From an uncultured Gemmatimonadales bacterium (GTDB taxonomy: Bacteria; Gemmatimonadota; Gemmatimonadetes; Gemmatimonadales; GWC2-71-9): 64,000 nt of DNA. The DNA lies in NCBI GenBank assembly GCA_963757525.1, contig CAVWRM010000002.1, positions 12,795 to 76,794 of the forward strand, written 5' to 3'. Positions 3 through 13,277 of the stretch are shown here, piece by piece (the first letter of the stretch is position 1; every line of letters starts with the position of its first letter). Under the pieces are notes generated by a model. The model was given only the letters and a program-made list of their open reading frames with translations, was not told the origin of the DNA and searched no databases. Made by a program: the position numbers and the translations under genes.

Positions 3-1988
3 GGATACTGTTTCCTGTGGAATCCCTCCCTGATTTGGCTCCATACGGTCTCGGACGGCCTCATCGCCGCGGCCTACTTCACCATCCCTCTCACGCTGGT
101 CTATTTCGTCCGCAAGCGACGGGACCTCCCCTTCAACTGGATGTTCGTCTGCTTCGGCGTCTTCATTCTCGCCTGCGGTACCACACACCTGCTTTCGATC
201 TATACCATCTGGGTGCCGGCGTGGTGGCTGTCGGGCGGGGTGAAAGTGCTGACGGCCGCCGCATCGGTGCCCACGGCCGTACTCCTCTATCGGCTGGTGC
301 CCGATGCGGTGGCGCTGCCGAGCCCGAGCGACCTCGCGGAGGCGAACGCCGCGCTGCGAGAAGCGCACGATGCCTTGGAGCGCCGGGTCGCCGAGCGCAC
401 CGCCGAGCTGGCCGCCGCCAATCGGGAGCTGGCGCGGAGTCGCGAGCGCTATCGCTCACTCGTCGAAGCGACGGCGCAGATCGTCTGGCACACGGACGCG
501 GCGGGGACCTTCGGCGGTGAGCAGCCTGGCTGGAGCCGGTTCACCGGACAAACGACCGCGCAGCTCGAGGACCGGGGCTCGGCTGAGGTCGTCCATCCCG
601 AGGATCGTGACCGGATGGACGCGGTATGGCGGCGGGGCATCCTCGCGGGAAAGGCGTTCGAGACCGCCTGCCGCATCCGCCGGCGGGACGGTGAATACCG
701 TCACATGGCCGTTCGCGCCGTTCCGGTGCGGGACGACTCCGGCGGCGTGCGGGAGTGGGTCGGCACCCATACCGACATCACGGAGCAGGTGGAGGTCGAG
801 GAGCAGCTGCGCCGCACCGAGAGCCAGCTCCTGCAGGCGCAGCGGATGGAGGCCGTCGGCCGTCTTGCCGGAGGGGTCGCCCACGACTTCAACAACATCC
901 TCACCGTCATCACGAGCGCGAGCCAGGTGCTGCTCGAGACGTTGCCGGCGAACAGCGAGGCCCACGCGGATGTCGTGGATATCGAGCAGGCCGCCAAGCG
1001 GGCCGCCTATCTCACCCGCCAGTTGCTGGCGTTCAGCCGCCGCCAGGTTCTCCAGATGCAGGTGCTATCCCTCAACGCCATCGTCGAGGACATCGAGACG
1101 ATTCTTCGCCGCGTCATCGGCGGCGACGTCGAGCTGCACACGCGGCTGTCCGCCGATCTCGGCACCGTGCGGGCCGATCCGGGCCAGATCGAGCAGGTCA
1201 TCATGAACCTGGCCGTGAACGCCCGCGACGCGATGCCCGACGGAGGGCACCTGACGATCGAGACCGCGAATGTGGACATCGGCGCGGAGTATGCCGGCAC
1301 TCACCTCGGTGTCGAGCCGGGAGCGTACGTGGCGCTGCTCGTGTCCGACACGGGGCAGGGGATGGATGCGATGACGCGCGCCCAGATCTTCGAGCCCTTC
1401 TTCACCACGAAAGGACCCGGGAAAGGCACGGGCCTCGGACTGTCGACCGTGTACGGCATCGTCAAACAGTGCGACGGGACGATCTGGGTGTACAGCGAGC
1501 CGGGAAAGGGCGCGGCCTTCAAGATTTATCTGCCGCGAACCGAGGAATTCGCCGCCCGCGCGGCCCCCACGCCGCCCGTGTCGGTCACCGACAACCTCCA
1601 CGGCGGCGAAGTGATTCTCCTCGCCGAAGACGAGATCGGTGTCCGGGTTCACTCCGCCCGAGTGCTCCGCCGCGCCGGCTACACCGTTCTCGACGCGCCT
1701 GACGGTGCCGGCGCACTGGCGCTGGCCCAGGGTTGGAGCGGCCCCATCGACCTGCTCATCACCGACATGATCATGCCCGGGATGGGGGGCAGGTCGCTGG
1801 CGGAACGGGTTACCGAGCGTTATCCGTCGATCGCGATATTGTTCATGTCGGGCTATACGGACGATGACGTGGTACGCCAGGGCGGTGTCGGCGCGCCGGC
1901 CTTCCTGCAGAAGCCCTATACGCCGAGCTCGCTTGCACGAAAGGTCCGCGAGGTGCTCGAGGCCTCGCAGGCGGCGCGGCAGGCCTGA
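3..1988 (+). CDS. hybrid sensor histidine kinase / response regulator (5' end outside window)
   Basis: The frame of ORF 141..1988 stays open back to base 3. The N-terminal stretch (WNPSLIWLHTVSDGLIAAAYFTIPLTLVYFVRKRRDLPFNWMFVCFGVFILACGTTHL) looks like a membrane sensor module. It is followed by a coiled coil, a PAS-like region, the H-box GGVAHDFNNIL, the ATPase boxes NLAVNARDAM / DTGQGM / GKGTGLGLS, and a C-terminal receiver (LLITDMIMPGMGG). Confidence 0.9.
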   Translation, partial: GYCFLWNPSLIWLHTVSDGLIAAAYFTIPLTLVYFVRKRRDLPFNWMFVCFGVFILACGTTHLLSIYTIWVPAWWLSGGVKVLTAAASVPTAVLLYRLVPDAVALPSPSDLAEANAALREAHDALERRVAERTAELAAANRELARSRERYRSLVEATAQIVWHTDAAGTFGGEQPGWSRFTGQTTAQLEDRGSAEVVHPEDRDRMDAVWRRGILAGKAFETACRIRRRDGEYRHMAVRAVPVRDDSGGVREWVGTHTDITEQVEVEEQLRRTESQLLQAQRMEAVGRLAGGVAHDFNNILTVITSASQVLLETLPANSEAHADVVDIEQAAKRAAYLTRQLLAFSRRQVLQMQVLSLNAIVEDIETILRRVIGGDVELHTRLSADLGTVRADPGQIEQVIMNLAVNARDAMPDGGHLTIETANVDIGAEYAGTHLGVEPGAYVALLVSDTGQGMDAMTRAQIFEPFFTTKGPGKGTGLGLSTVYGIVKQCDGTIWVYSEPGKGAAFKIYLPRTEEFAARAAPTPPVSVTDNLHGGEVILLAEDEIGVRVHSARVLRRAGYTVLDAPDGAGALALAQGWSGPIDLLITDMIMPGMGGRSLAERVTERYPSIAILFMSGYTDDDVVRQGGVGAPAFLQKPYTPSSLARKVREVLEASQAARQA

Positions 1989-3151: not shown

Positions 3152-3487
3152 CTACGACCTGCGTAGGCGACTGGTCGCGTGCCCGATACGCGCCCGGTAA
3201 TCGGCGGCGCGCTCACCGTCCCGCCGGATCGGGGGAACGAACTCGGGCGCCTCGGGCTGGGGCGATCCGATGCGGTTGACGAACAGGTCGCCGCCGCGTG
3301 CCTCGACCGCCGACTCGAATCGCTCGATGGCGTCGAGCAGGTCCGCCACGGCTTCGTCGTCGTCCTCCGCGAGCACCTGGATCCCGCGCGCGCCCAGCCT
3401 CGATTCCGACTCCTTGCGCGCCCGCCGCTGTTCCTCGGCGCGATGCGGGTCGAGCTCGCGCTGCTCCGTCTCGTACCTGTCTGCCAC
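3152..3487 (-). CDS. hypothetical acidic protein
   Basis: 111-aa ORF with strongly GC-biased third positions and a non-repetitive charged sequence (MADRYETEQRELDPHRAEEQ...DDDEAVADLLDAIERFESAVEA). It lies 35 nt upstream of, and co-directional with, 2644..3117. Confidence 0.5.
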   Translation of the reverse strand: MADRYETEQRELDPHRAEEQRRARKESESRLGARGIQVLAEDDDEAVADLLDAIERFESAVEARGGDLFVNRIGSPQPEAPEFVPPIRRDGERAADYRARIGHATSRLRRS

Positions 3488-3709: not shown

Positions 3710-5023
3710 ATGCAGCCGCTTGCTCGGTCTCTGCTGCTTGACAGCGCCGAGCGCCTGTTCGAACCTTACGCACGGAACCCAGACGTCGTTACACCCTCTA
3801 CATCACCATTCCCGATGCCGGCTGCTGCTACAGTCGCTCCGATGTTTTTCATCAGCTACCGGCGAGACGACAGTGCGGGGCACGTGGGTCGTCTCTACGA
3901 CGCGCTTTCCGCCCGCTTCGGCCGGCAGCGACTCTTCTTCGACATCGATCATATCGCGCCGGGCCAGGACTTCGTCCAGGTGCTCGACGACTCGCTCAAC
4001 CGGTGCTCGGTGCTCCTGGTCGTGATCGGGAAGCGATGGGCAGGCAGTGGCCGGATGGGGTCGCGACGGATCGATCAACCGGATGACTTCGTACACCTCG
4101 AGGTAGCCGCCGGCCTGCGCCGCTCCGACCTGCGGGTCATTCCGGTGCTCATCCAGGGCGCGAAGATGCCGGGGCCCGCGGCACTCCCGGACGCTCTCAA
4201 GGACCTGTCACGCCGGAACGCGACCGAGCTGAGCGATCTGCGCTGGAAGGAGGATGTGGCCCGGCTCATCTCGAGTCTCGAGGGCGACCGCGCCGCCAGC
4301 ACCGGCGAGGCCCCGGGCGAGGCGCTGCGGCGGCTGGCGAGCGGCATCAAGCTTCCGGCCGGGCTCCCCCCGTGGGCCAAGCCGGCCGGTGTCGCCGCGG
4401 TCGCGCTCGTTCTCGTTGGCCTCGCCGCGGCGGCATTCTCGTCACGAGACGGCAAGGAGGGAGTGGCGACGGCGGCCGTGACCGGGACGAGCTCGGTGCC
4501 CCGCGGCGATCCGCTCAGGCTGCCGTCCCGTCTCGATCAGGCCGTGAAGGTGGTGCAGCCGGTGGCCCGGAAGTGGCGCGCCGATGCCCAGCTCACCGAG
4601 ATCGAAGCTACCCTGCCGCCAGCGGGGTCGAGCCTCGAGGAGTACATCCTCAACTTCAGTTACCGCTCGTCAACCGATGGAGCGGGACTCAAGGTGACGA
4701 CGGGGTCGGCCGACGGTCTCCGCTACGACAAGCTTCCGGCGATCGCGCGCGCGTCCATCCGGCCGCTCGCCGATACCTTCATGAATCTCCCCGACGCCTT
4801 GTCGGCGGCTCGGAGCGCCGGCATGTTCGGCCAGGTTCAGTCGGCTCGGCTTTACGTGACCGCCAGCGGGACGCGCGCCGGTCGTCCCACCTGGAGCATC
4901 CGGCCGGTCGAGAATGGACAGGCCAAGGCCTATTACCTCGACGCCATCACCGGTAAATCCGTCGCCGCTCCGCCGAGCAAGAAGGGCGGGCTGCTCGGCA
5001 AGGTCGAAGGCATCTTCAAGTAG
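3710..5023 (+). CDS. TIR domain - single TM - PepSY-like extracytoplasmic domain protein
   Basis: TIR_2-type motifs: FFISYRRDDSAGHVGRLYDAL, RLFFDIDHIAPGQDF, SVLLVVIG, and DDFVHLEVAAGL with the candidate catalytic Glu at nt 4100-4102. One hydrophobic helix follows (AGVAAVALVLVGLAAAAF). The C-terminal ~190 aa end in AYYLDAITGKSV, which is PepSY-like. Alternative starts are ATG 3812 and ATG 3842. Confidence 0.85.
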   Translation: MQPLARSLLLDSAERLFEPYARNPDVVTPSTSPFPMPAAATVAPMFFISYRRDDSAGHVGRLYDALSARFGRQRLFFDIDHIAPGQDFVQVLDDSLNRCSVLLVVIGKRWAGSGRMGSRRIDQPDDFVHLEVAAGLRRSDLRVIPVLIQGAKMPGPAALPDALKDLSRRNATELSDLRWKEDVARLISSLEGDRAASTGEAPGEALRRLASGIKLPAGLPPWAKPAGVAAVALVLVGLAAAAFSSRDGKEGVATAAVTGTSSVPRGDPLRLPSRLDQAVKVVQPVARKWRADAQLTEIEATLPPAGSSLEEYILNFSYRSSTDGAGLKVTTGSADGLRYDKLPAIARASIRPLADTFMNLPDALSAARSAGMFGQVQSARLYVTASGTRAGRPTWSIRPVENGQAKAYYLDAITGKSVAAPPSKKGGLLGKVEGIFK

Positions 5024-5033
5024 TCCAGTCCGG

Positions 5034-7004
5034 TCACACCTTGGGCAGCTTGATCGGGCGCTCGCGGTGAAGCATGAGCCAGTCGCCATGCTCGGCGAGC
5101 GCTTCCTTCCCGAGCTCCACCGCCAGTGCCCGCGCCCCATCCAGCTTGCCGTCGTGCAGGAGCGCCGCCATGCGGTCGCCCGCGCGGGTGAAGCTCTCCG
5201 CCATCCGCGCGTACTGACGCGCGTGTTCCCCGAACGCCCGCTTGTCCGTCATGGAGTGAATGAGCGCGCCGGCGACCGTCACCACCGTCAGTGACAGCAC
5301 CGACCACGCGTGACGGTCACCCTCCACCTCGGGCCAGCGGGCGTGAGCCCAGCCGGAGAGCACCCTGACCAGCAGAAAGAAGAGCCCCCCTGCCGCCGCG
5401 CCGACCAGGAACGGCCGCAGCTCGACGAGAAACGCGCGGGCGCCGCGTGACTGGGCTCCTCGCACCATCTGTGAGCCCTTGAAGGCGAGGTGCCAGGCGA
5501 GCACGAGGCTCACGAGGAGCAGTGGCACCTGGAGAATCCGGGTCCAGTTAGGGGCGCCCTCCGGCATGGCGCGGAGGTTGAGAGCGACACTCGGAATGGC
5601 CCACAGCAGGCTCGCGAGAATCACGCCCCCGGCCACCGAGCGGTACTTGGATAGCCGGTCGCGCTCGCGCCGGGTCGATCGGGTGTAGTAGTCGCGCTGA
5701 CTCTCGATCCATCCGGTTGCCAGGGCGCCAAGATCCCCATCCCGGGCCGGCGCCGCGCGGATGCCCGCCGCCCGGATGGCTTCACGAATCCACGCCAGCT
5801 CATCCCGCTGCTTCCGCAGGTAATAGTCGGCCGCCGAGCGCTCCAGTCCCGCCAGGCGCCAGTAGAACTGCACCCGGAGTCCCTCCGCCACCGCGCGGTA
5901 GTCCTGAAACTTGTTCTGGCTCTGTCGGTGGCGGGACATCAGGTACACGACGTCGGCGACGCCGAGCACGGCCACATAGCCCGCGAGAAAGAGGGCGACG
6001 CGGGGGTCCTCGCCGGGAAAGGCGTGGGCGTACAGCTGGAACAGCAACACCGCGAGCATCGCCAGCCCGTAGATGCTCCACATCACGCGATAGGTCTCCC
6101 GCTGAAAACGCGATGCGAGGGCGTCGGCCACGCCGAACGAGCGCCGCAGCCCAGCCAGGGAGCGGGAAGCGCCCTCGAGCGGCCCTTCGTGGAGCCAGCG
6201 CTCGCTCGTGTCGACCGCGGCTCCGTTGGCGGATGTGACGCGGAGCGCGTCGCGGTTGAAGGCGTCGACGTGGGCCAGTGTCTGGGCGAGCGGCGACGGA
6301 ATCGTGTCACTGTCCGCTGGCTCCGGGGTGTGCTCGGGCAGGAGCCAACGTCCGGAGAACGGATCGTCCGGGCAGGGGCGGTCCTTCCTTGGGGTCGCGA
6401 TGTGATAAACGGGGCCGGTGTCGTGCGGATCGAGCGGGGTGCCGGACAGCGCGTAGGGTTCGGGCGCGAGCTCGAGCTGGTCGCCCACGAAGTCCCCCGT
6501 GCCGAACCGGCCGCTCCTTCGGTAGGCGATGACCTGTGAGGTGCCGCCCACACTGTCCGACTCGATCCCGTCCCACAAGGCGACGAGCACATGGCTCTGG
6601 CGGGCAACGAACGCGCCGGCGAGCGCGTACTGCAGCGCGCGATCATCGCCGAGCGGGGGCAGCTCGAGATGGCGAACGGCGCGAAGGTCGTCGAACAGCC
6701 GGTCGAATTCGACGATGGTGGCCGGAAAGTCCCTGGCGTAGTCGGCGCGAGGCAGGGGTATGGGGGCGACGAGCTCCGCGCCGAGCTCCAGCGCCACCCG
6801 CGCCGCGAGCCGGTCGGCTCCCTCGGCCAGCGGTGTAATCAGGACCAGGGGACTGCTCGGATAGTCGCGCCGGAGACGCTCCAGGAACCGGCGCACCGCG
6901 GCCTGCAGGGGCGCGACGTCTCCATCGCGGAGATCGCGGTGTCCCGTGATGCCTACCACGATCGGGATCAGGCCAGCGCTGGACGCGTCAGCCGGCGGGG
7001 TCAT
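5034..7004 (-). CDS. SLOG-like (LOG/DprA-type Rossmann) domain fused to six-TM, SLATT-like membrane domain
   Basis: The N-terminus reads IPIVVGITGHRDL...PLVLITPLAEGADRLAARVAL...HVLVALWDG...GGTSQVI, a beta-alpha-beta pattern of the SLOG superfamily. Three pairs of TM helices follow (VMWSIYGLAMLAVLLFQLY / VALFLAGYVAVLGVADVVYL; VAGGVILASLLWAIPSVAL / ILQVPLLLVSLVLAWHLAF; FLVGAAAGGLFFLLVRVL / WSVLSLTVVTVAGALIHSM). Each pair is followed by a charged amphipathic helix. Confidence 0.8.
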   Translation of the reverse strand: MTPPADASSAGLIPIVVGITGHRDLRDGDVAPLQAAVRRFLERLRRDYPSSPLVLITPLAEGADRLAARVALELGAELVAPIPLPRADYARDFPATIVEFDRLFDDLRAVRHLELPPLGDDRALQYALAGAFVARQSHVLVALWDGIESDSVGGTSQVIAYRRSGRFGTGDFVGDQLELAPEPYALSGTPLDPHDTGPVYHIATPRKDRPCPDDPFSGRWLLPEHTPEPADSDTIPSPLAQTLAHVDAFNRDALRVTSANGAAVDTSERWLHEGPLEGASRSLAGLRRSFGVADALASRFQRETYRVMWSIYGLAMLAVLLFQLYAHAFPGEDPRVALFLAGYVAVLGVADVVYLMSRHRQSQNKFQDYRAVAEGLRVQFYWRLAGLERSAADYYLRKQRDELAWIREAIRAAGIRAAPARDGDLGALATGWIESQRDYYTRSTRRERDRLSKYRSVAGGVILASLLWAIPSVALNLRAMPEGAPNWTRILQVPLLLVSLVLAWHLAFKGSQMVRGAQSRGARAFLVELRPFLVGAAAGGLFFLLVRVLSGWAHARWPEVEGDRHAWSVLSLTVVTVAGALIHSMTDKRAFGEHARQYARMAESFTRAGDRMAALLHDGKLDGARALAVELGKEALAEHGDWLMLHRERPIKLPKV

Positions 7005-7076
7005 CGGATTCCTGGGCCTGAAGTGGACGGAGTGTCCCTAAGATGCGCCCGATGTCGCGACGGGCAAGGCGACACG

Positions 7077-7108
7077 AACGCCCAGGACTCCGGAGGGTCC
7101 TGGGCGTT
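7077..7108 (-). other. perfect 12-bp stem hairpin between the receiver gene and the SLOG-TM gene
   Basis: aacgcccaggac-tccggagg-gtcctgggcgtt: 12/12 complementary arms with an 8-nt loop. There is no U-tract on either strand, so it may be an attenuator, a processing site or a Rho-type pause rather than a classical terminator. Confidence 0.4.
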
Positions 7109-7152
7109 CCAATGGTGAGACTCGGCCCGAGGTCGGGTCGATTGGTGCGCGG

Positions 7153-7551
7153 CTAGGCGCTCCGGCGCTGGGAGGCTTCCAGGCTCAACAGGTGGGCGAC
7201 CGAGCTCCAGAGCGGATTGAGGTCGCCTCGCGCCGCGACATCGAAGGGTCCCCGGAGTCGCGCCGCCTGGCGGAGCTGGGCGGTGATGAACGTGTTATGC
7301 GGCAGGATCGGCGTGTCCGGCGCAATCTCGCCGACGCTGCGCAGCGCGCTCAACGCGGAGACGTCCGGCAGCTTGGTGTCGAGCAGCACGAGGTCGAACG
7401 GGTGCCGCCGCAGAATATCGAGGCCGGCTCGAAACGTGGTGACCTCGGTGACGCGCACCCGCCCGCGTCCACGAAGCGCCAGGAGCTCCTGAACGATCTG
7501 CCGATCGAGCTGGTCATCCTCGATGAGGAGAACTTCCGCAACCGAAATCAT
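7153..7551 (-). CDS. single-domain response regulator (receiver only)
   Basis: CheY-like receiver: VLLIEDDQLDRQIV, phospho-acceptor context FDLVLLDTKLPDVSA. No output domain. Start taken at ATG 7551 (MISVAEVLLIED); the ORF extends to 7647. Confidence 0.8.
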   Translation of the reverse strand: MISVAEVLLIEDDQLDRQIVQELLALRGRGRVRVTEVTTFRAGLDILRRHPFDLVLLDTKLPDVSALSALRSVGEIAPDTPILPHNTFITAQLRQAARLRGPFDVAARGDLNPLWSSVAHLLSLEASQRRSA

Positions 7552-7872
7552 GGCCCTCTGCCTTGTCTGGGCTGACGGGGGAAAGGCGGGATGGTCCCGG
7601 AGGGGGAAAACGCCAGACATGTGCCAGAAGGGCCAGTCGTGTCGCAAATTTATCAGAGCTACTGTAAACGACTGAGGGGTATAGGTTTATATATTGTCAT
7701 ATCAGGTAATATCTCACCTCGCCCCTGGGGCGCGGTCTTGCGGTGCAGCACTCGACTGGTCCCGGAGTGTTGCTCCCAGCCTACAAAAACCACGCACCGG
7801 CCATCTCGTCGCGTAGGCGGGATGACCGGTGCGTGGGGCTGGGGTCCCCGGCGTAGCAGCGCCGGGAATGGA

Positions 7873-9018
7873 TCAGGTCGTAAGCACCTTCCCGAAGCGA
7901 TTCACGTCATCGAGAATGCGGCCGGTGCCGCGCACGACCGACGTCAATGGGTCGTCATCCACCCGAACCGGCAGACCGGTCTCGTCCTGCAGCAGCTGGC
8001 TCAGCCCGCGGATCAGCGAGCCGCCGCCCGTGAGCACGATGCCGTGCTCCAGGATGTCGCTCGAGAGCTCGGGCGGCGTCATCTCGAGTGCCCGGCGCAC
8101 TGCGTTCACGATGCGGGAGAGCGGCTCCTGGATCGCGTCGCGGATGCCCGACGAATCCACCCGCACGGTCTTGGGCAGGCCGGAGACGAGGTCGCGACCC
8201 TTCACGTCCATCTCTTCCTCGGGCATCAGCGGCACCGCGGAACCGAGCTGAATCTTGATCTTTTCGGCCGTGGGGTCGCCGATGAGCAGGCTGTAGGTCT
8301 TCCGCATGTACTGGACGATCGCCTGATCGAGCTCGTCACCGCCCGTGCGAATCGAGGCGTCGCAGACGATCCCGCCGAGGGCGATGACGGCGATGTTGGT
8401 CGTCCCTCCGCCGATGTCGATCACCATGCTTCCCGTGGGCGTTTCGACGGGGAGGCCGACGCCGATGGCCGCGGCCATGGGCTCCGATACCATCAGCAGC
8501 CGCTTCACGCCGGCCGAGCGCGCCGAGTCGCGCACCGCGCGCCGCTCGACCTCGGTGATGCCGGACGGGACGCAGACGATGACCGTGGGCTTGACCTTGA
8601 GGACGGTGCGATCGATGACGAGGCGGAGGAAGTGGCGCAGCATCTTCTCGGCGATATCGAAATTCGCGATCACCCCGTCCTTCATCGGGCGCACCGCGAG
8701 AATGCCGTCCGGCGTGCGTCCGAGCATCATCTTCGCCTGGTGCCCGATCCCCATGATGTTGCCGGCCTTGTCCACCGCGGCGACGGAGGGCTCGTTGAGC
8801 ACCACGCCTTCACCCTTCACGAGGACGAGCGTATTGGCCGTGCCGAGATCCACCGCGAGCTCGGTAGCGGGACGCCAGGCCTTTCGCTTGGGAAGCGCAC
8901 GGGCATGTCCGTTGGCCTGCCCGAGAGCCAGCGACGTGGGGAGTGGGGAGTCGGGTTCGAGAACAGCCGTCACGGTGCGAAGTCCCTTCTTCGAGTGATG
9001 AACGCCAGGGCCGAACAA
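7873..9018 (-). CDS. mreB: rod shape-determining protein MreB
   Basis: Actin-fold motifs AVDLGTANTLVLVKGEGVVLNEPSVAAV, VCVPSGITEVERRAV, MVIDIGGGTTNIAVI and VLTGGGSLIRGL. The TTG start at 9018 gives an N-terminus about 30-40 aa longer than usual; GTG 8973 is an alternative. Confidence 0.9.
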   Translation of the reverse strand: MFGPGVHHSKKGLRTVTAVLEPDSPLPTSLALGQANGHARALPKRKAWRPATELAVDLGTANTLVLVKGEGVVLNEPSVAAVDKAGNIMGIGHQAKMMLGRTPDGILAVRPMKDGVIANFDIAEKMLRHFLRLVIDRTVLKVKPTVIVCVPSGITEVERRAVRDSARSAGVKRLLMVSEPMAAAIGVGLPVETPTGSMVIDIGGGTTNIAVIALGGIVCDASIRTGGDELDQAIVQYMRKTYSLLIGDPTAEKIKIQLGSAVPLMPEEEMDVKGRDLVSGLPKTVRVDSSGIRDAIQEPLSRIVNAVRRALEMTPPELSSDILEHGIVLTGGGSLIRGLSQLLQDETGLPVRVDDDPLTSVVRGTGRILDDVNRFGKVLTT

Positions 9019-9161
9019 ACCCCGGCGCCTGCCTTGCAGTTCTCCTGCGGCGATTGCGTTTCACCGGGAGGCCGAAGGGAAACGTCCTGACAGTGCTGGG
9101 TCCGGGCGGGGAATGTGCAAGATGTGATCCACACGAGGCGGCGCGGCTCCGGCGGCGCGCG

Positions 9162-10019
9162 TCAGGCGATGATGCCGAGCGTGGCCAGGACCGGGGCCCC
9201 GAGCGCCGGATCGCCGCTGAGGCTGACGCGGGCCCGGTCGGCCTCGGTCTTGAGGGCCTTGGAGAACAGCCGCCAGGCGGTATCGCCGGTCATCGTCGCG
9301 GTGGCGTCGGCCAGGCCGGCAGCGCCTCGGAACAGCCGCCACGCCCCGGCTTCCCGCAGCAGGGTCCAGTGCCCGCCGGCGTCGCCGGTGATCTCCACGT
9401 GCACCGTCGTCCCGTCGTTCCGCCGCACCGCCCGAAAGCCGTGGGGCAACGAGCGGATGAAGAGATCGAGCACCGGCCCGAGCCACCGGCGGTCCAGCAG
9501 GCCCGGCGCGCCGACCGCGAGGCGGATGTGCTGCTGGTGCAGCCACCGCTCGGTGTAGTCGCGTCCGATGTCGAACCAGTTCTGCGAGTGCTCTTCACCG
9601 GCCCACGAGACACCGAACCGGGCCGGACCGAACGGGTCGAGCGACGCGAAATGGGCCGCGACCTGGGGACCGGTGAGCTCGAGCAGGTCGACGATGACGC
9701 GCGGACTCAGGCGCCGCGCGGCGGTCACCCACTCGGCGTTGAGCCGGTTGATGAATTCGGCCAGCGCCGCGTCGCCCGGCCCGCCCGGACCGATCGGCGG
9801 CTGATGACCGTCGCGGTCGAAGGAGAGGCGCCGGAGATCGTCGTCGAGCAGATGGGCCGCGATGTCGCGGACCGACCAGCGGGCGCACAGCGTCGGCCGA
9901 TTCCAGTCGTCGGCCCGCAGGCCGCGGAGCAGCGCGATCAAGGCCGCGTGCAGCGGCGAAAAGAGGTCGTGCACCAGGAGGGGCTCCACCGGGCGCAGCG
10001 CGGATCGCGGGTCGGTCAT
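9162..10019 (-). CDS. DinB/MDMPI-like protein (maleylpyruvate isomerase N-terminal domain family)
   Basis: Only the 3' 285 codons of ORF 9162..10493 look coding: MTDPRSALRPVEPLLVHDLFSPLHAALIALLRGLRADDWNRPTLCARWSVRDIAAHL is the typical DinB-like helix bundle start. ATG 10019 is used; ATG 10049 is an alternative. Confidence 0.7.
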   Translation of the reverse strand: MTDPRSALRPVEPLLVHDLFSPLHAALIALLRGLRADDWNRPTLCARWSVRDIAAHLLDDDLRRLSFDRDGHQPPIGPGGPGDAALAEFINRLNAEWVTAARRLSPRVIVDLLELTGPQVAAHFASLDPFGPARFGVSWAGEEHSQNWFDIGRDYTERWLHQQHIRLAVGAPGLLDRRWLGPVLDLFIRSLPHGFRAVRRNDGTTVHVEITGDAGGHWTLLREAGAWRLFRGAAGLADATATMTGDTAWRLFSKALKTEADRARVSLSGDPALGAPVLATLGIIA

Positions 10020-11271: not shown

Positions 11272-11781
11272 ATGGCCCGACGCCCGCCCGCCGTCCTCCT
11301 CCTCATCCTCATGCTGGTGGGGGCGGGGGCGTGCCGGATCGAGGATCACACGCCTGACGGCTCGCGCCGGGACGAGGAAGCCGTGCAGGCGCTCGTCGCC
11401 GGGTACGCGCGCACCCTGTCCTCCCGCGACTGGAGGGGCGCCCGCGCGCTGTTCTGGGCGGACGCGAGCTACGCCGGCCCGATGATCCCCCTGGCCGGCG
11501 ACGCCCATCAGGCCGTCCCGATCGATCTCGCCATCAACACCATCGCACGCCGGGTCGAGGGAGTCGACACCCAGCGCTTCGATGTCCGGATTCTCCGCGC
11601 GGACATCCGCCAGGACGGCGACATTGCCGCCGTCTGGATGACCACCCGGCGCCGGATCCCGGCCGCCGGGCGAGTGATGGAGGGCGACTGGGTGGAGCAC
11701 CTCGTGCTGAGGCGCATCGATGGCGAGTGGCGAATCCTGAGCGTCACCGCCCGTGCGGCGCGGCGCGCTCCCAGGTCATGA
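11272..11781 (+). CDS. SnoaL/NTF2-like (DUF4440-type) lipoprotein
   Basis: Signal plus lipobox (LLLILMLVGAGAC). The pattern EEAVQALVAGYARTLSSRDWRGARALFWADASY ... GEWRILSV is typical of the NTF2-like fold. The stop overlaps the next start (ATGA). Confidence 0.65.
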   Translation: MARRPPAVLLLILMLVGAGACRIEDHTPDGSRRDEEAVQALVAGYARTLSSRDWRGARALFWADASYAGPMIPLAGDAHQAVPIDLAINTIARRVEGVDTQRFDVRILRADIRQDGDIAAVWMTTRRRIPAAGRVMEGDWVEHLVLRRIDGEWRILSVTARAARRAPRS

Positions 11782-13277
11782 CCACCGCGGACGGACCGCT
11801 GGCCCTCATCGGATCCGTCGCCAAGCTGCTCACCGCCGGGCTCGGCACCGAGGCGACCGTCGCGGCGGTTGCCGAGACGGTGCGGGCCGGACTGCCGGCG
11901 GCCGGCGTGACCCTCTGGGTGCGGGGACCGGGAGCGACGGCGTTTCGGCCGGTGGCGGCGCCGATGGCCCCGGACGCCCTGAGGCTGGTGGCGTCGCTGG
12001 CGGAGGTTCCGCAGGGCGAGGGGCGGCGCTTCGTCCTGGAGCACGAGGGCATCGAGCTCGGCCTCATGGACGTGGCCTTCGAGGAGGACGGTGCCCGGCT
12101 CGACGCGCTCGGCATCGTGGCGGACATCCTGTCGCCCTATCTCGCGTCCGCCGAGCTGTCGACCGATCTCGCGGGCGAAGTGGCCGAGCAGTCACGCGAA
12201 ATCGACGAGCACCGGCGCTTCACGGGCCTCATCATCGACAGCCTGCCGGTAGGACTCTACGTTGTGGATCGCGACTACCGGATCACGACGTGGAATCGCA
12301 AGCGGGAGACGGGCACCCAGGGACTCCGCCGTGACGCGGTGGTGGGCCGGCCCGTCTTCGAGGTGCTGACCCGGCAACCCGCGGCCCAGCTCCGCGCCGA
12401 CTTCGACCGGGTTTTCCGGACCGGCGAGATTCAGCAGCGGGAAATCGAGGTGGCGGCCGGCGGGGAGACGCGGTACTACCGGCTCAGCAAGATTCCGATG
12501 CGGCTCGAGGGCGACGAGATCACCCACGTGATCACGATCGGTGAAGACGTCACCGAGCGGCAGGGCATTCAGGCGCAGATCGCGCAGAGCGAAAAGTTAG
12601 CCGCCGTGGGGCAGCTCGCCGCGGGCGTCATGCACGAGATCAACAACCCGCTCGCCACCATCAGCGCGTGCGTGGCGGCGATCCAGGGTCGCCTGCCCGC
12701 CGGATGGGCCGGCGCCGAGCCGGTGACCGAATATCTCGAGATGATCGACAAGGAAGTCGAGCGGTGCACCCGCATCGTGGACGGACTCCTCGACTTCAGT
12801 CGTCCCAAGGGCAAGACCAAGGGCCCCGTCTCGCTCAATCGCCTCGTGGCGGATACCCTCTTTCTGTTGAAACACCACCAGCGCTTCAGGCATCTCCAGG
12901 TCGTTCAGGAGCTGGACCCGGCGGAGCCGGTCGCCGCCGGGAACTCGGAGCAGTTGACCCAGGTGCTGCTGGCGCTCACGCTCAACGCCGTGGATGCGAT
13001 GGAGGAGGGCGGTACGCTGACGCTGCGGACCTCGGCGGGGCGTGGCCGGGCGGACGAAACCCTGCTCGAAGTGGAAGACACGGGCGTGGGGATCCCCCGG
13101 GCCGACCAGGGAAAGATCTTCGAGCCGTTCTTCACGACCAAGCCGCCGGGGAGGGGAACCGGGCTCGGCCTGTCGATCTGCTACGGCATCGTCGAAGACC
13201 ACCGCGGCCGGATCGAGGTCGACAGCGCGCCGGGCCGCGGGTCGGTGTTCCGGGTCTACCTGCCGGTGAGGCCATGA
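11778..13277 (+). CDS. cytoplasmic GAF-like/PAS sensor histidine kinase
   Basis: PAS ([26 protein letters not shown]), H-box [13 protein letters not shown] box [11 protein letters not shown] boxes EDTGVGIP and [18 protein letters not shown] 11778 overlaps the upstream stop. Confidence 0.9.

Follow-up and report, generated by a model that had tools for sequence, protein, structure and literature searches.

A membrane-anchored TIR protein and a SLOG-fused, SLATT-like membrane protein as a candidate Thoeris-like gene pair of Gemmatimonadota

The stretch of DNA analysed here (hereafter the window) comprises 64,000 nucleotides of contig CAVWRM010000002.1, from an uncultured Gemmatimonadales bacterium. 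It carries a gene for a TIR-domain protein with a single membrane helix, and next to it a gene for a protein in which a SLOG domain is followed by a SLATT-like membrane region. The balance of the evidence tips towards these forming a Thoeris-like two-gene module, in which a derivative of nicotinamide adenine dinucleotide (NAD+) made by the TIR protein would gate the SLOG-fused, SLATT-like membrane effector. That the locus might unite a signal producer with a sensor and membrane effector was first suggested in a preliminary description of the sequence, and the idea stands as a candidate, none of the computational tests having refuted it. Underlying it are the domain identities of the two proteins, their transmembrane (TM) topology as given by hydropathy, an invariant catalytic glutamate, and the conserved adjacency and co-inheritance of the two genes. 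The mechanism has precedents in Thoeris of types I, II and VII and in the role predicted for SLATT domains.

In the proposed scheme, the TIR protein would reside in the inner membrane, with its TIR domain in the cytoplasm and its folded C-terminal domain in the periplasm. An envelope cue would let the TIR domains assemble and cleave NAD+ to produce a messenger derived from ADP-ribose (ADPR), such as an isomer of cyclic ADPR (cADPR) or a related molecule, which would bind the cytoplasmic SLOG domain of the partner protein. Binding would then shift the conformation or oligomeric state of the SLATT-like membrane region of four to six helices, such that the membrane would turn permeable, with ion flux or depolarisation leading to growth arrest or death. 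Both the triggering cue and the biological role assigned to the pair in this scheme are presumptive.

Conserved linkage of the two genes

The window contains two convergent open reading frames (ORFs), as first described: 3710..5023 on the forward strand (437 aa) and 5034..7004 on the reverse strand (656 aa), with only the 10 nt at 5024..5033 between their stop codons. Linkage was studied in a sample of 81 loci, consisting of the window and 80 genomes from more than ten phyla, with TIR genes being found by profile. A TIR_2 gene is present in 51 of these loci and lies within 1 kb of the SLOG-SLATT gene in 41, a density 16-fold that of the far flanks of these loci; where both flanks are available, 44 loci out of 63 have a TIR gene nearby. 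The check on neighbourhood conservation proposed in the preliminary description hence favours a genuine association, which recurs across many phyla. Pfam TIR_2 scored above its cut-off in all nine of the stronger profile matches that were scanned and, among the matches listed, in eight of ten weaker ones, the other two showing WD40-type matches.

Within the Gemmatimonadota, the same TIR orthologue accompanies the partner gene in every locus examined. The pair is convergent in the window and in loci L001-L003 and L082, divergent in L004 and L005, and co-directional, with a gap of 12-100 bp, in L084 and L085; no flanking genes common to these loci were found. A reverse look-up gave the same picture, as all three long contigs with the TIR orthologue also bear the partner. 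Divergence from the window pair is correlated between the two proteins (Spearman rho 0.89) across 18 TIR/partner pairs, which were joined through the identical lengths of their contigs, a shared contig being deduced from that identity. The adjacency of the two genes is thus conserved and proof against rearrangement, and the genes are co-inherited. In public collections both window proteins are recorded on one 269-kb contig, and the closest named relatives of each come from Gemmatimonadales metagenome-assembled genomes (MAGs). Further afield, a mobilizable Caballeronia megaplasmid in RefSeq encodes a family member labelled "DUF4231 domain-containing protein", followed by a TIR gene and a WD40 gene.

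It had been cautioned that the two genes are convergent and not an operon. This is true of the window, where no terminator-like site was found within the 5024..5033 spacer, and where a promoter and terminator scan around the pair was uninformative, detecting no shared regulatory signals. The concern is nevertheless answered by the relatives that keep the pair co-directional with gaps of 12-100 bp.

The TIR partners found across the family vary in architecture. At the column of the catalytic glutamate, all 54 TIR neighbours that cover it have glutamate. In about 30 of the 51 TIR-positive loci the TIR protein is membrane-anchored by hydropathy, being arranged either as TIR, TM helix and outer domain (PepSY-like, TPR, WD40 or SH3), or in the order outer domain, TM helix, TIR. 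A different layout is shared by nine loci (L021, L039, L042, L048, L062, L064, L066, L067 and L072, at about 6400-9700 in most), in which a gene for a Tll0287-like/HAMP membrane sensor, a gene for a short soluble TIR protein (220-250 aa) and the SLOG-SLATT gene are co-directional. These loci come from eight Steroidobacteraceae MAGs and one unclassified gammaproteobacterial MAG, and their sensor is separate, not fused to the TIR domain. Other partners are TIR-TIR-AAA_35 proteins, SIR2-TIR proteins and TIR domains fused to other large, apparently soluble regions. The location of the sensor-type parts on the TIR side implies that the TIR protein acts upstream of the SLOG protein.

Several individual loci depart from these patterns. 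In a gammaproteobacterial MAG, four tandem co-directional genes with the layout TIR, TM helix and a further domain are found some 2 kb downstream of the SLOG-SLATT gene (L038:9100-14670). In a Rhodoferax MAG, the SLOG-SLATT gene adjoins a SIR2_2-TIR_2 fusion (L015:9887-11335), which places two NAD+-consuming domains in one partner. Suggestive neighbours also occur in three loci that lack a TIR gene: a SLOG-less protein with DUF4231 and SLATT_1 (L054:9744-10841), an Ion_trans channel (L017:9795-10661) and an AAA_35-TPR protein beside the SLOG-SLATT gene (L056:4854-7940). In L032 and L076, AAA_35 is itself fused to TIR-TIR.

Domain architecture of the two proteins

The ORF first reported for the TIR protein, 3710..5023, exists as the longest frame, but the gene more likely occupies 3842..5023 (forward strand, 393 aa), because the public annotation of a protein with 100% identity (P0127) starts it at an internal methionine ('MFFISYRRDD', 393 aa). 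At least 179 full-length orthologues were detected, nearly all of them from Gemmatimonadota.

A TIR_2 domain, predicted to be cytoplasmic, is encoded at 3845..4267 on the forward strand and is supported by Pfam profile, orthologue alignment and Foldseek. The match to Pfam TIR_2 (PF13676) covers residues 46-186 of the 437-aa ORF (E = 6e-12; 46.6 bits against a cut-off of 28), which bears out the original recognition of a TIR domain. The profile is also matched by all of 32 orthologues, across which the domain is almost frozen, and the catalytic glutamate is invariant in all 32; this residue is E87 in the 393-aa numbering and E131 in that of the ORF, the position singled out in the preliminary description. 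In Foldseek searches the best matches were SARM1 (TMt 0.78), TIR-1, AbTir and SPARTA, so that active NADase TIRs are the closest, and the probability was 1.00 against the TIR domains of SARM1, TIR-1, AbTir, MyD88 and Toll-like receptors. The modelled domain has the flavodoxin-like TIR fold. It would presumably act as an NADase or cyclase.

The sole TM helix of the protein is encoded at 4385..4441 on the forward strand (hydropathy 2.31 over 19 residues), corresponding to residues 226-244 of the 437-aa ORF by hydropathy and to residues 179-200 in the structure model. The AlphaFold model (predicted local distance difference test score, pLDDT, of 75.9) comprises the TIR fold, a long helix and a C-terminal domain. 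The C-terminal domain that follows the TM helix (193 aa) is confidently modelled; its folded part, at 4532..4942, also on the forward strand (pLDDT about 90), consists of two helix-plus-sheet repeats, and the best match in the PDB is the secreted lipoprotein 4exr (TMt 0.65, Foldseek). The label 'PepSY-like' for this domain stays tentative, as Pfam PepSY matches just two of the 32 orthologues, with E about 0.02. The domain is predicted to face the periplasm, since a TIR domain depends on NAD+ from the cytoplasm and more lysine and arginine residues flank the helix on its N-terminal side. Hence both elements of the membrane-anchored TIR protein with an outward-facing domain, as previously envisaged, are present, while the orientation is a matter of prediction.

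The partner gene (5034..7004, reverse strand) encodes a protein of 656 aa that is 100% identical over its full length to the public protein P0001. It has at least 772 close relatives, and members occur in at least 473 species genomes; the family as a whole forms 3,798 clusters at 50% identity with E<=1e-30, or 11,131 at 1e-3, spread over more than ten phyla.

The N-terminal SLOG domain (residues about 13-225; 6330..6968, reverse strand) was placed by alignment and Foldseek, and bears the motifs GxTGHRD, AEGADR, WDG and GGT. The segments quoted in the preliminary description (VVGITGHRD, ITPLAEGADR, LVALWDG and GGTS) are all present, and are invariant or nearly so in 30 homologues, as are G18, G21, H22 and R23, the run E61-G62-A63-D64, the run W144-D145-G146, and G153-G154 in the loops. 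The glycine-rich loops that follow the first strand and precede the last helix are taken here to be the ligand loops. By profile, the match to the SLOG family YAcAr is sub-threshold for the window protein (22.4 bits against a cut-off of 28.2, E = 1e-4) and is found in 10 of the 30 homologues at E<0.01; the family profile gave no meaningful match to PDB sequences, and it is the fold search that points to SLOG. The AlphaFold model (pLDDT 86.7; predicted TM-score, pTM, 0.86) supports a Rossmann-like SLOG fold, with SLOG members as the best solved matches, namely YpsA (2nx2; E = 4.7e-4, TMt 0.65), DprA, ShosA, the MoCo carrier protein, LOG and the SLOG domain of ThsA, including the structure bound to 3'cADPR (7uxs) and 6lhx. 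The recognition of a SLOG-like domain in the preliminary description is in this way supported by the modelled fold and the conserved motifs, the profile check that it proposed having remained below threshold. The domain is expected to bind the messenger, not to process it.

Hydropathy assigns five TM segments to the remainder of the protein (residues 307-325, 336-354, 457-475, 490-508 and 532-550) and the model adds a sixth at about 564-589, in keeping with the three two-helix hairpins originally described. The hairpins at 307-354 and 457-508 have short outer loops and are followed by conserved helices, a layout expected of SLATT proteins. Such proteins are also marked by an association with SLOG domains or nucleotide-signal generators, and here SLOG is fused and a TIR gene adjoins in 41-51 of 81 loci. 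The first of them (5943..6086, reverse strand) falls inside a DUF4231/SLATT_3-like module (residues about 289-379). After it comes a highly conserved juxtamembrane helix, FQDYRAVAEGLRVQFYWRLAGL (residues 362-384 in alignment and model; 5853..5921, reverse strand), in which D368, R370, A373, E374, G375, R377, V378 and W382 are invariant, with the consensus FQDYRAxAEGLRVQF.W. Of the helices in the TM3-TM6 region (residues 457-587; 5244..5636, reverse strand), TM3 and TM6 are family-wide; TM4-TM5 (residues about 477-567; nucleotides 5304..5576) is an inserted hairpin that the commoner forms of 560-620 aa lack, columns 580-690 of the 30-member alignment being gaps in the short forms. The protein ends with conserved helices, predicted to be cytoplasmic, that terminate in ELGKEALAEHGDWLMLHRERP (5055..5234, reverse strand; model helices 591-647, pLDDT above 90). 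Here G632, E634, L636, W642, H646, R647, R649 and P650 are invariant, and the consensus is ELGKEALxExGDW..LHRxRP.

Against the SLATT profiles the window protein scores below cut-off throughout (SLATT_3 14.9-20.3 bits, SLATT_1 19.7 and DUF4231 13.6), the NCBIfam SLATT_1 match lying at residues 432-509. Its homologues do better: when 30 were scanned singly at E<0.01, 16 matched DUF4231, 12 SLATT_3 and three SLATT_1, and the DUF4231 cut-off of 24.7 bits is exceeded by family members in L084 (34.8), L085 (27.9) and L090 (30.9). In the proposed SLATT profile check, some relatives exceed the curated threshold and the window protein itself stays below it. Formation of a pore by this region is plausible. 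A reading of it as two modules comes only from the separate Pfam and NCBIfam matches, and an internal duplication of two homologous SLATT modules found no support (hhalign probability 1%).

Functional interpretation and relation to known systems

Signalling from a TIR producer through a nucleotide sensor to the membrane is an established logic. A preprint of December 2025 distinguishes Thoeris types I-XI, among which type I has a SIR2-SLOG effector and a 3'cADPR messenger, type II a Macro effector that forms a membrane pore in response to His-ADPR, type III several TIRs with a SLOG effector, and type VII a TIR with the SLATT effector ThsH and canonical cADPR as messenger (bioRxiv 10.64898/2025.12.03.692087). 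In work by the Aravind group, SLATT is predicted to be a nucleotide-responsive pore former, and both TIR-SLATT and TIR-SLOG systems are noted.

The window pair resembles type I in placing a TIR gene beside a protein with SLOG as the likely receiver of an ADPR derivative, and its fold matches include the ThsA SLOG structures 7uxs and 6lhx. By contrast, its output is a membrane region instead of the SIR2 NADase of ThsA, its SLOG domain is N-terminal and nearer the YpsA/YAcAr type, and its TIR protein is membrane-anchored with an outer domain; no ThsA model matched, and ThsB models matched weakly (ThsB1 24 bits). With type VII it shares the pairing of TIR with a SLATT-type membrane effector that is thought to breach the membrane on messenger binding. 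ThsH, which was compared by description only, is described as SLATT alone with predicted ligand pockets between SLATT protomers, whereas the window effector bears a fused N-terminal SLOG domain and has four to six TM helices. The TIR domains published for type VII are also unlike that of the window. Type III is similar in its combination of TIRs with a SLOG effector, in that the best NCBIfam match to the window TIR is ThcB4, and in that the relative L038 has four tandem TIR genes after its SLOG-SLATT gene. However, the ThcB4 match reaches 34 bits where its cut-off demands 220, there is a single TIR in the window, and the SLOG-SLATT protein matched none of the type III effector models. The Thoeris models of PADLOC and NCBIfam did not match the effector. 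In type II, too, a membrane-spanning effector is switched on by a TIR-made messenger acting on its cytoplasmic nucleotide-binding domain, but the sensor is Macro, not SLOG, and the membrane parts differ.

Table S2 of the preprint also lists untyped 'SLOG and 4TM' candidates from Streptomyces sp. GKU 895 and Ca. Nitrospira nitrosa, with effectors IMG 2691454910 and 2862473379 (bioRxiv 10.64898/2025.12.03.692087). By label these share TIR, SLOG and four TM helices with the window pair, and the SLOG found beside a relative with 60% identity to the Nitrospira TIR aligns with the window SLOG (hhalign 80%, E = 1.4e-5). The closest recoverable loci, however, bear a stand-alone SLOG of 219 aa with no TM helix, the TIR domains are unrelated to the window TIR beyond the fold, and the order of the name, together with a Streptomyces plasmid encoding 8xMP and SLOG, hints at 4TM followed by SLOG, the reverse of the window. 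Identity of the SLOG-SLATT family with this class was not established, the comparison having been made through proxies only: contigs of Nitrospira-TIR relatives had no effector or a stand-alone SLOG, and a metagenome scan for further relatives recovered mostly a different, soluble TPR-S-SLOG family. None of the window TIR motifs was found in the part of Table S1 that was searched (bioRxiv 10.64898/2025.12.03.692087).

Outside Thoeris, the effector recalls TRPM2 and its relatives in having a SLOG-type domain ahead of a helical membrane channel, ADPR being the ligand of TRPM2. The full-length model weakly matches TRPM2, TRPM4 and TRPM8 chains (Foldseek TM-scores of 0.09-0.17, with the TRPM N-terminus listed), but these matches are global, and TRPM membrane domains are unrelated six-TM, voltage-gated-like channels. 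The resemblance is hence an analogy and does not indicate shared ancestry of the whole protein.

What is new, then, is the family of SLOG-SLATT fusions, none of whose members has been characterised, along with its size and its receptor-like TIR partners; no paper on the family, or on membrane-anchored TIR sensors paired with it, was found among the open-access papers searched. The earlier view that the architecture matches no described Thoeris type is upheld as regards the fusion and qualified by type VII, which already combines TIR with SLATT, and by the prior prediction of TIR-SLOG systems. If the favoured interpretation is true, fusions of a SLOG sensor with a SLATT-like membrane module would be a new effector class in bacterial TIR signalling, and a very common one, with thousands of clusters in more than ten phyla and no experimental member. 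As a single TIR gene and a single effector gene, with an invariant catalytic residue and a predicted ligand-binding domain, the Gemmatimonadota pair is a compact test case that could reveal a possibly new TIR-made messenger, and TIR signalling outside immunity.

Several results weigh against a Thoeris-like role. When 107 neighbours of TIR-positive loci were run through PADLOC, a count made without a matched background, fewer than about ten matched at 1e-10 and no system recurred; no phage copies of the family were found; and the flanks in the window are housekeeping genes. The PADLOC check suggested at the outset found nothing for the SLOG-SLATT protein and, for the window TIR, only weak ThsB-like matches. 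Both the SLOG and the SLATT profile matches of the window protein fall below curated cut-offs, and no family member has associated biochemistry. In 19 of the 63 loci with both flanks, mostly from Bacteroidota and Ignavibacteriota, no TIR gene is nearby; therefore the effector can exist apart from an adjacent producer. The neighbours in such loci are unrelated housekeeping genes (FBPase, urocanase, MipA, TonB receptors and similar), among which no alternative conserved partner was found. Moreover, the 'SLOG and 4TM' candidates gave no defence in Escherichia coli (bioRxiv 10.64898/2025.12.03.692087), although these candidates may belong to a different family. The Gemmatimonadota pair also looks vertically inherited and strongly constrained, which tells against a simple new Thoeris type. 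A role in conflict or abortive infection may be the default by analogy, but it is not supported by the context; the anti-phage function implied by the preliminary description likewise gains no support from PADLOC neighbours, phage copies or flanks.

These observations allow a tentative elaboration, a possibility more likely to fail than to hold, in which the pair would be part of a receptor-type pathway. An extracytoplasmic sensor, linked through one membrane helix to a TIR domain, would elicit a messenger that gates the SLOG-fused channel, serving envelope surveillance or ordinary physiology in place of cytosolic phage sensing. The sensors may be the PepSY-like domain in the window, TPR, WD40 and SH3 domains elsewhere, and the separate Tll0287-HAMP protein in other loci. 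Such a function would follow from the vertical inheritance of the pair in Gemmatimonadota and its apparent position outside defence islands. The pathway may amount to outside-in TIR signalling, with a logic near that of Toll-like receptors and, by analogy, of ADPR-gated TRPM2. The Thoeris TIR proteins characterised so far are said to sense invading phage, with capsid sensing reported in one study; if the pair works as proposed, the mostly membrane-anchored partners of this family would read envelope cues, linking bacterial TIRs to animal-like receptor signalling.

Among the rivals to the Thoeris-like module, the one that survives best, while still unlikely, retains the same wiring for ordinary physiology, with a cue from the envelope or the environment, picked up by the periplasmic domain, leading through a TIR-made nucleotide to a regulated, non-lethal channel comparable to ADPR-gated TRPM2. 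Such a channel would suit the vertical inheritance of the pair across Gemmatimonadota and the very strong purifying selection on the TIR domain, as well as the housekeeping flanks, the even base composition, the lack of recurrent defence genes among neighbours and the lack of phage copies. It would also fit the TIR partners, which have sensor-type domains anchored in the membrane or are encoded after a Tll0287-HAMP sensor gene, and the weak TRPM matches of the effector model. Yet the TIR partners, with their TPR, WD40, AAA_35 and SIR2 fusions and tandem TIR arrays, show the extreme variety that typifies conflict systems, and the module changes its place with respect to the flanking genes and is also present on a mobilizable megaplasmid. 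In addition, the same SLOG clade is found in a TIR-caspase operon on a Ti plasmid, and the SLATT effectors characterised so far kill cells.

An inversion of the roles is improbable. The TIR protein would here be the effector, depleting NAD+, and the SLOG-SLATT protein either a membrane sensor or scaffold that activates it or a nucleotide-processing SLOG enzyme. Many bacterial TIRs deplete NAD+, and the preprint allows the same for unverified types (bioRxiv 10.64898/2025.12.03.692087); some SLOG clades are enzymes, and in structure the window TIR comes nearest to the NAD+-consuming executioner SARM1. Nevertheless, the sensor-type domains (outer domains, TPR, WD40 and AAA_35) are on the TIR proteins and not on the SLOG-SLATT protein, which has no input domain besides SLOG. 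Furthermore, the residue after the GGT motif, which is presumed to correspond to the catalytic glutamate of LOG-type enzymes, is not conserved as glutamate in the alignment.

Finally, chance adjacency of unrelated genes, to which the convergent, non-operonic arrangement and the lack of detected shared regulatory signals in the window might point, is effectively refuted by the enrichment of TIR genes beside the family relative to the far flanks, the persistence of adjacency through all orientations and changing flanks, the reverse look-up and the correlated divergence of the pairs.

Surrounding genes and related SLOG proteins

GC content across the region is even, at 0.64-0.72. The flanking genes encode a histidine kinase, DUF6962 and DUF6265 proteins, a receiver-only response regulator, MreB, a DinB-like protein, superoxide dismutase (SodA) and a peroxiredoxin, so the preliminary description was right to call the neighbours housekeeping. 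The span that it gave to the locus, up to 7551, takes in the receiver-only response regulator (7153..7551, reverse strand), which is not conserved with the pair. This gene is the immediate upstream neighbour of the SLOG-SLATT gene, shares its strand, is separated from it by 148 nt and has a weak PADLOC match to PDC-M60B (E = 1.5e-5); it was rejected as a third component, as it is not common to the eight other Gemmatimonadota loci.

Between the DUF6265 gene and the TIR gene there is an ORF for a highly charged protein of 111 aa (3152..3487, reverse strand), which may not be a gene: no family match above noise and no counterpart in related loci were found for it. Two PAS-type sensor histidine kinases are encoded within 12 kb, at 141..1988 and 11727..13277, both on the forward strand. 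The former bears a C-terminal receiver domain, making it a PAS/histidine-kinase/receiver hybrid, and nothing ties either kinase to the TIR pair.

SLOG domains of the same clade occur in other settings. An abundant soluble family of about 660 aa, from soil and sediment metagenomes (L093-L171, e.g. L096:2546-4594), has TPR-S (PF20308) in the middle of the protein and a C-terminal SLOG of this clade, and most of its members have no TIR nearby. On Agrobacterium plasmid pTiCFBP5877, genes for a TIR protein, a caspase-family protein and a stand-alone SLOG of 149 aa form an operon among CHAT-domain genes (L091:4642-6483); this SLOG, too, belongs to the clade (A1 profile, E = 9e-24), and the operon looks like a type IV-like Thoeris system with an extra SLOG component. 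On a plasmid of Streptomyces sp. NBC_00984 (L089:5407-6501), in which no TIR was detected and an IS110 transposase is nearby, a gene of the octameric membrane protein family 8xMP precedes one for a stand-alone SLOG that likewise belongs to the clade (E = 3e-15). This combination of 8xMP and SLOG may correspond to the label '4TM SLOG' in the preprint.

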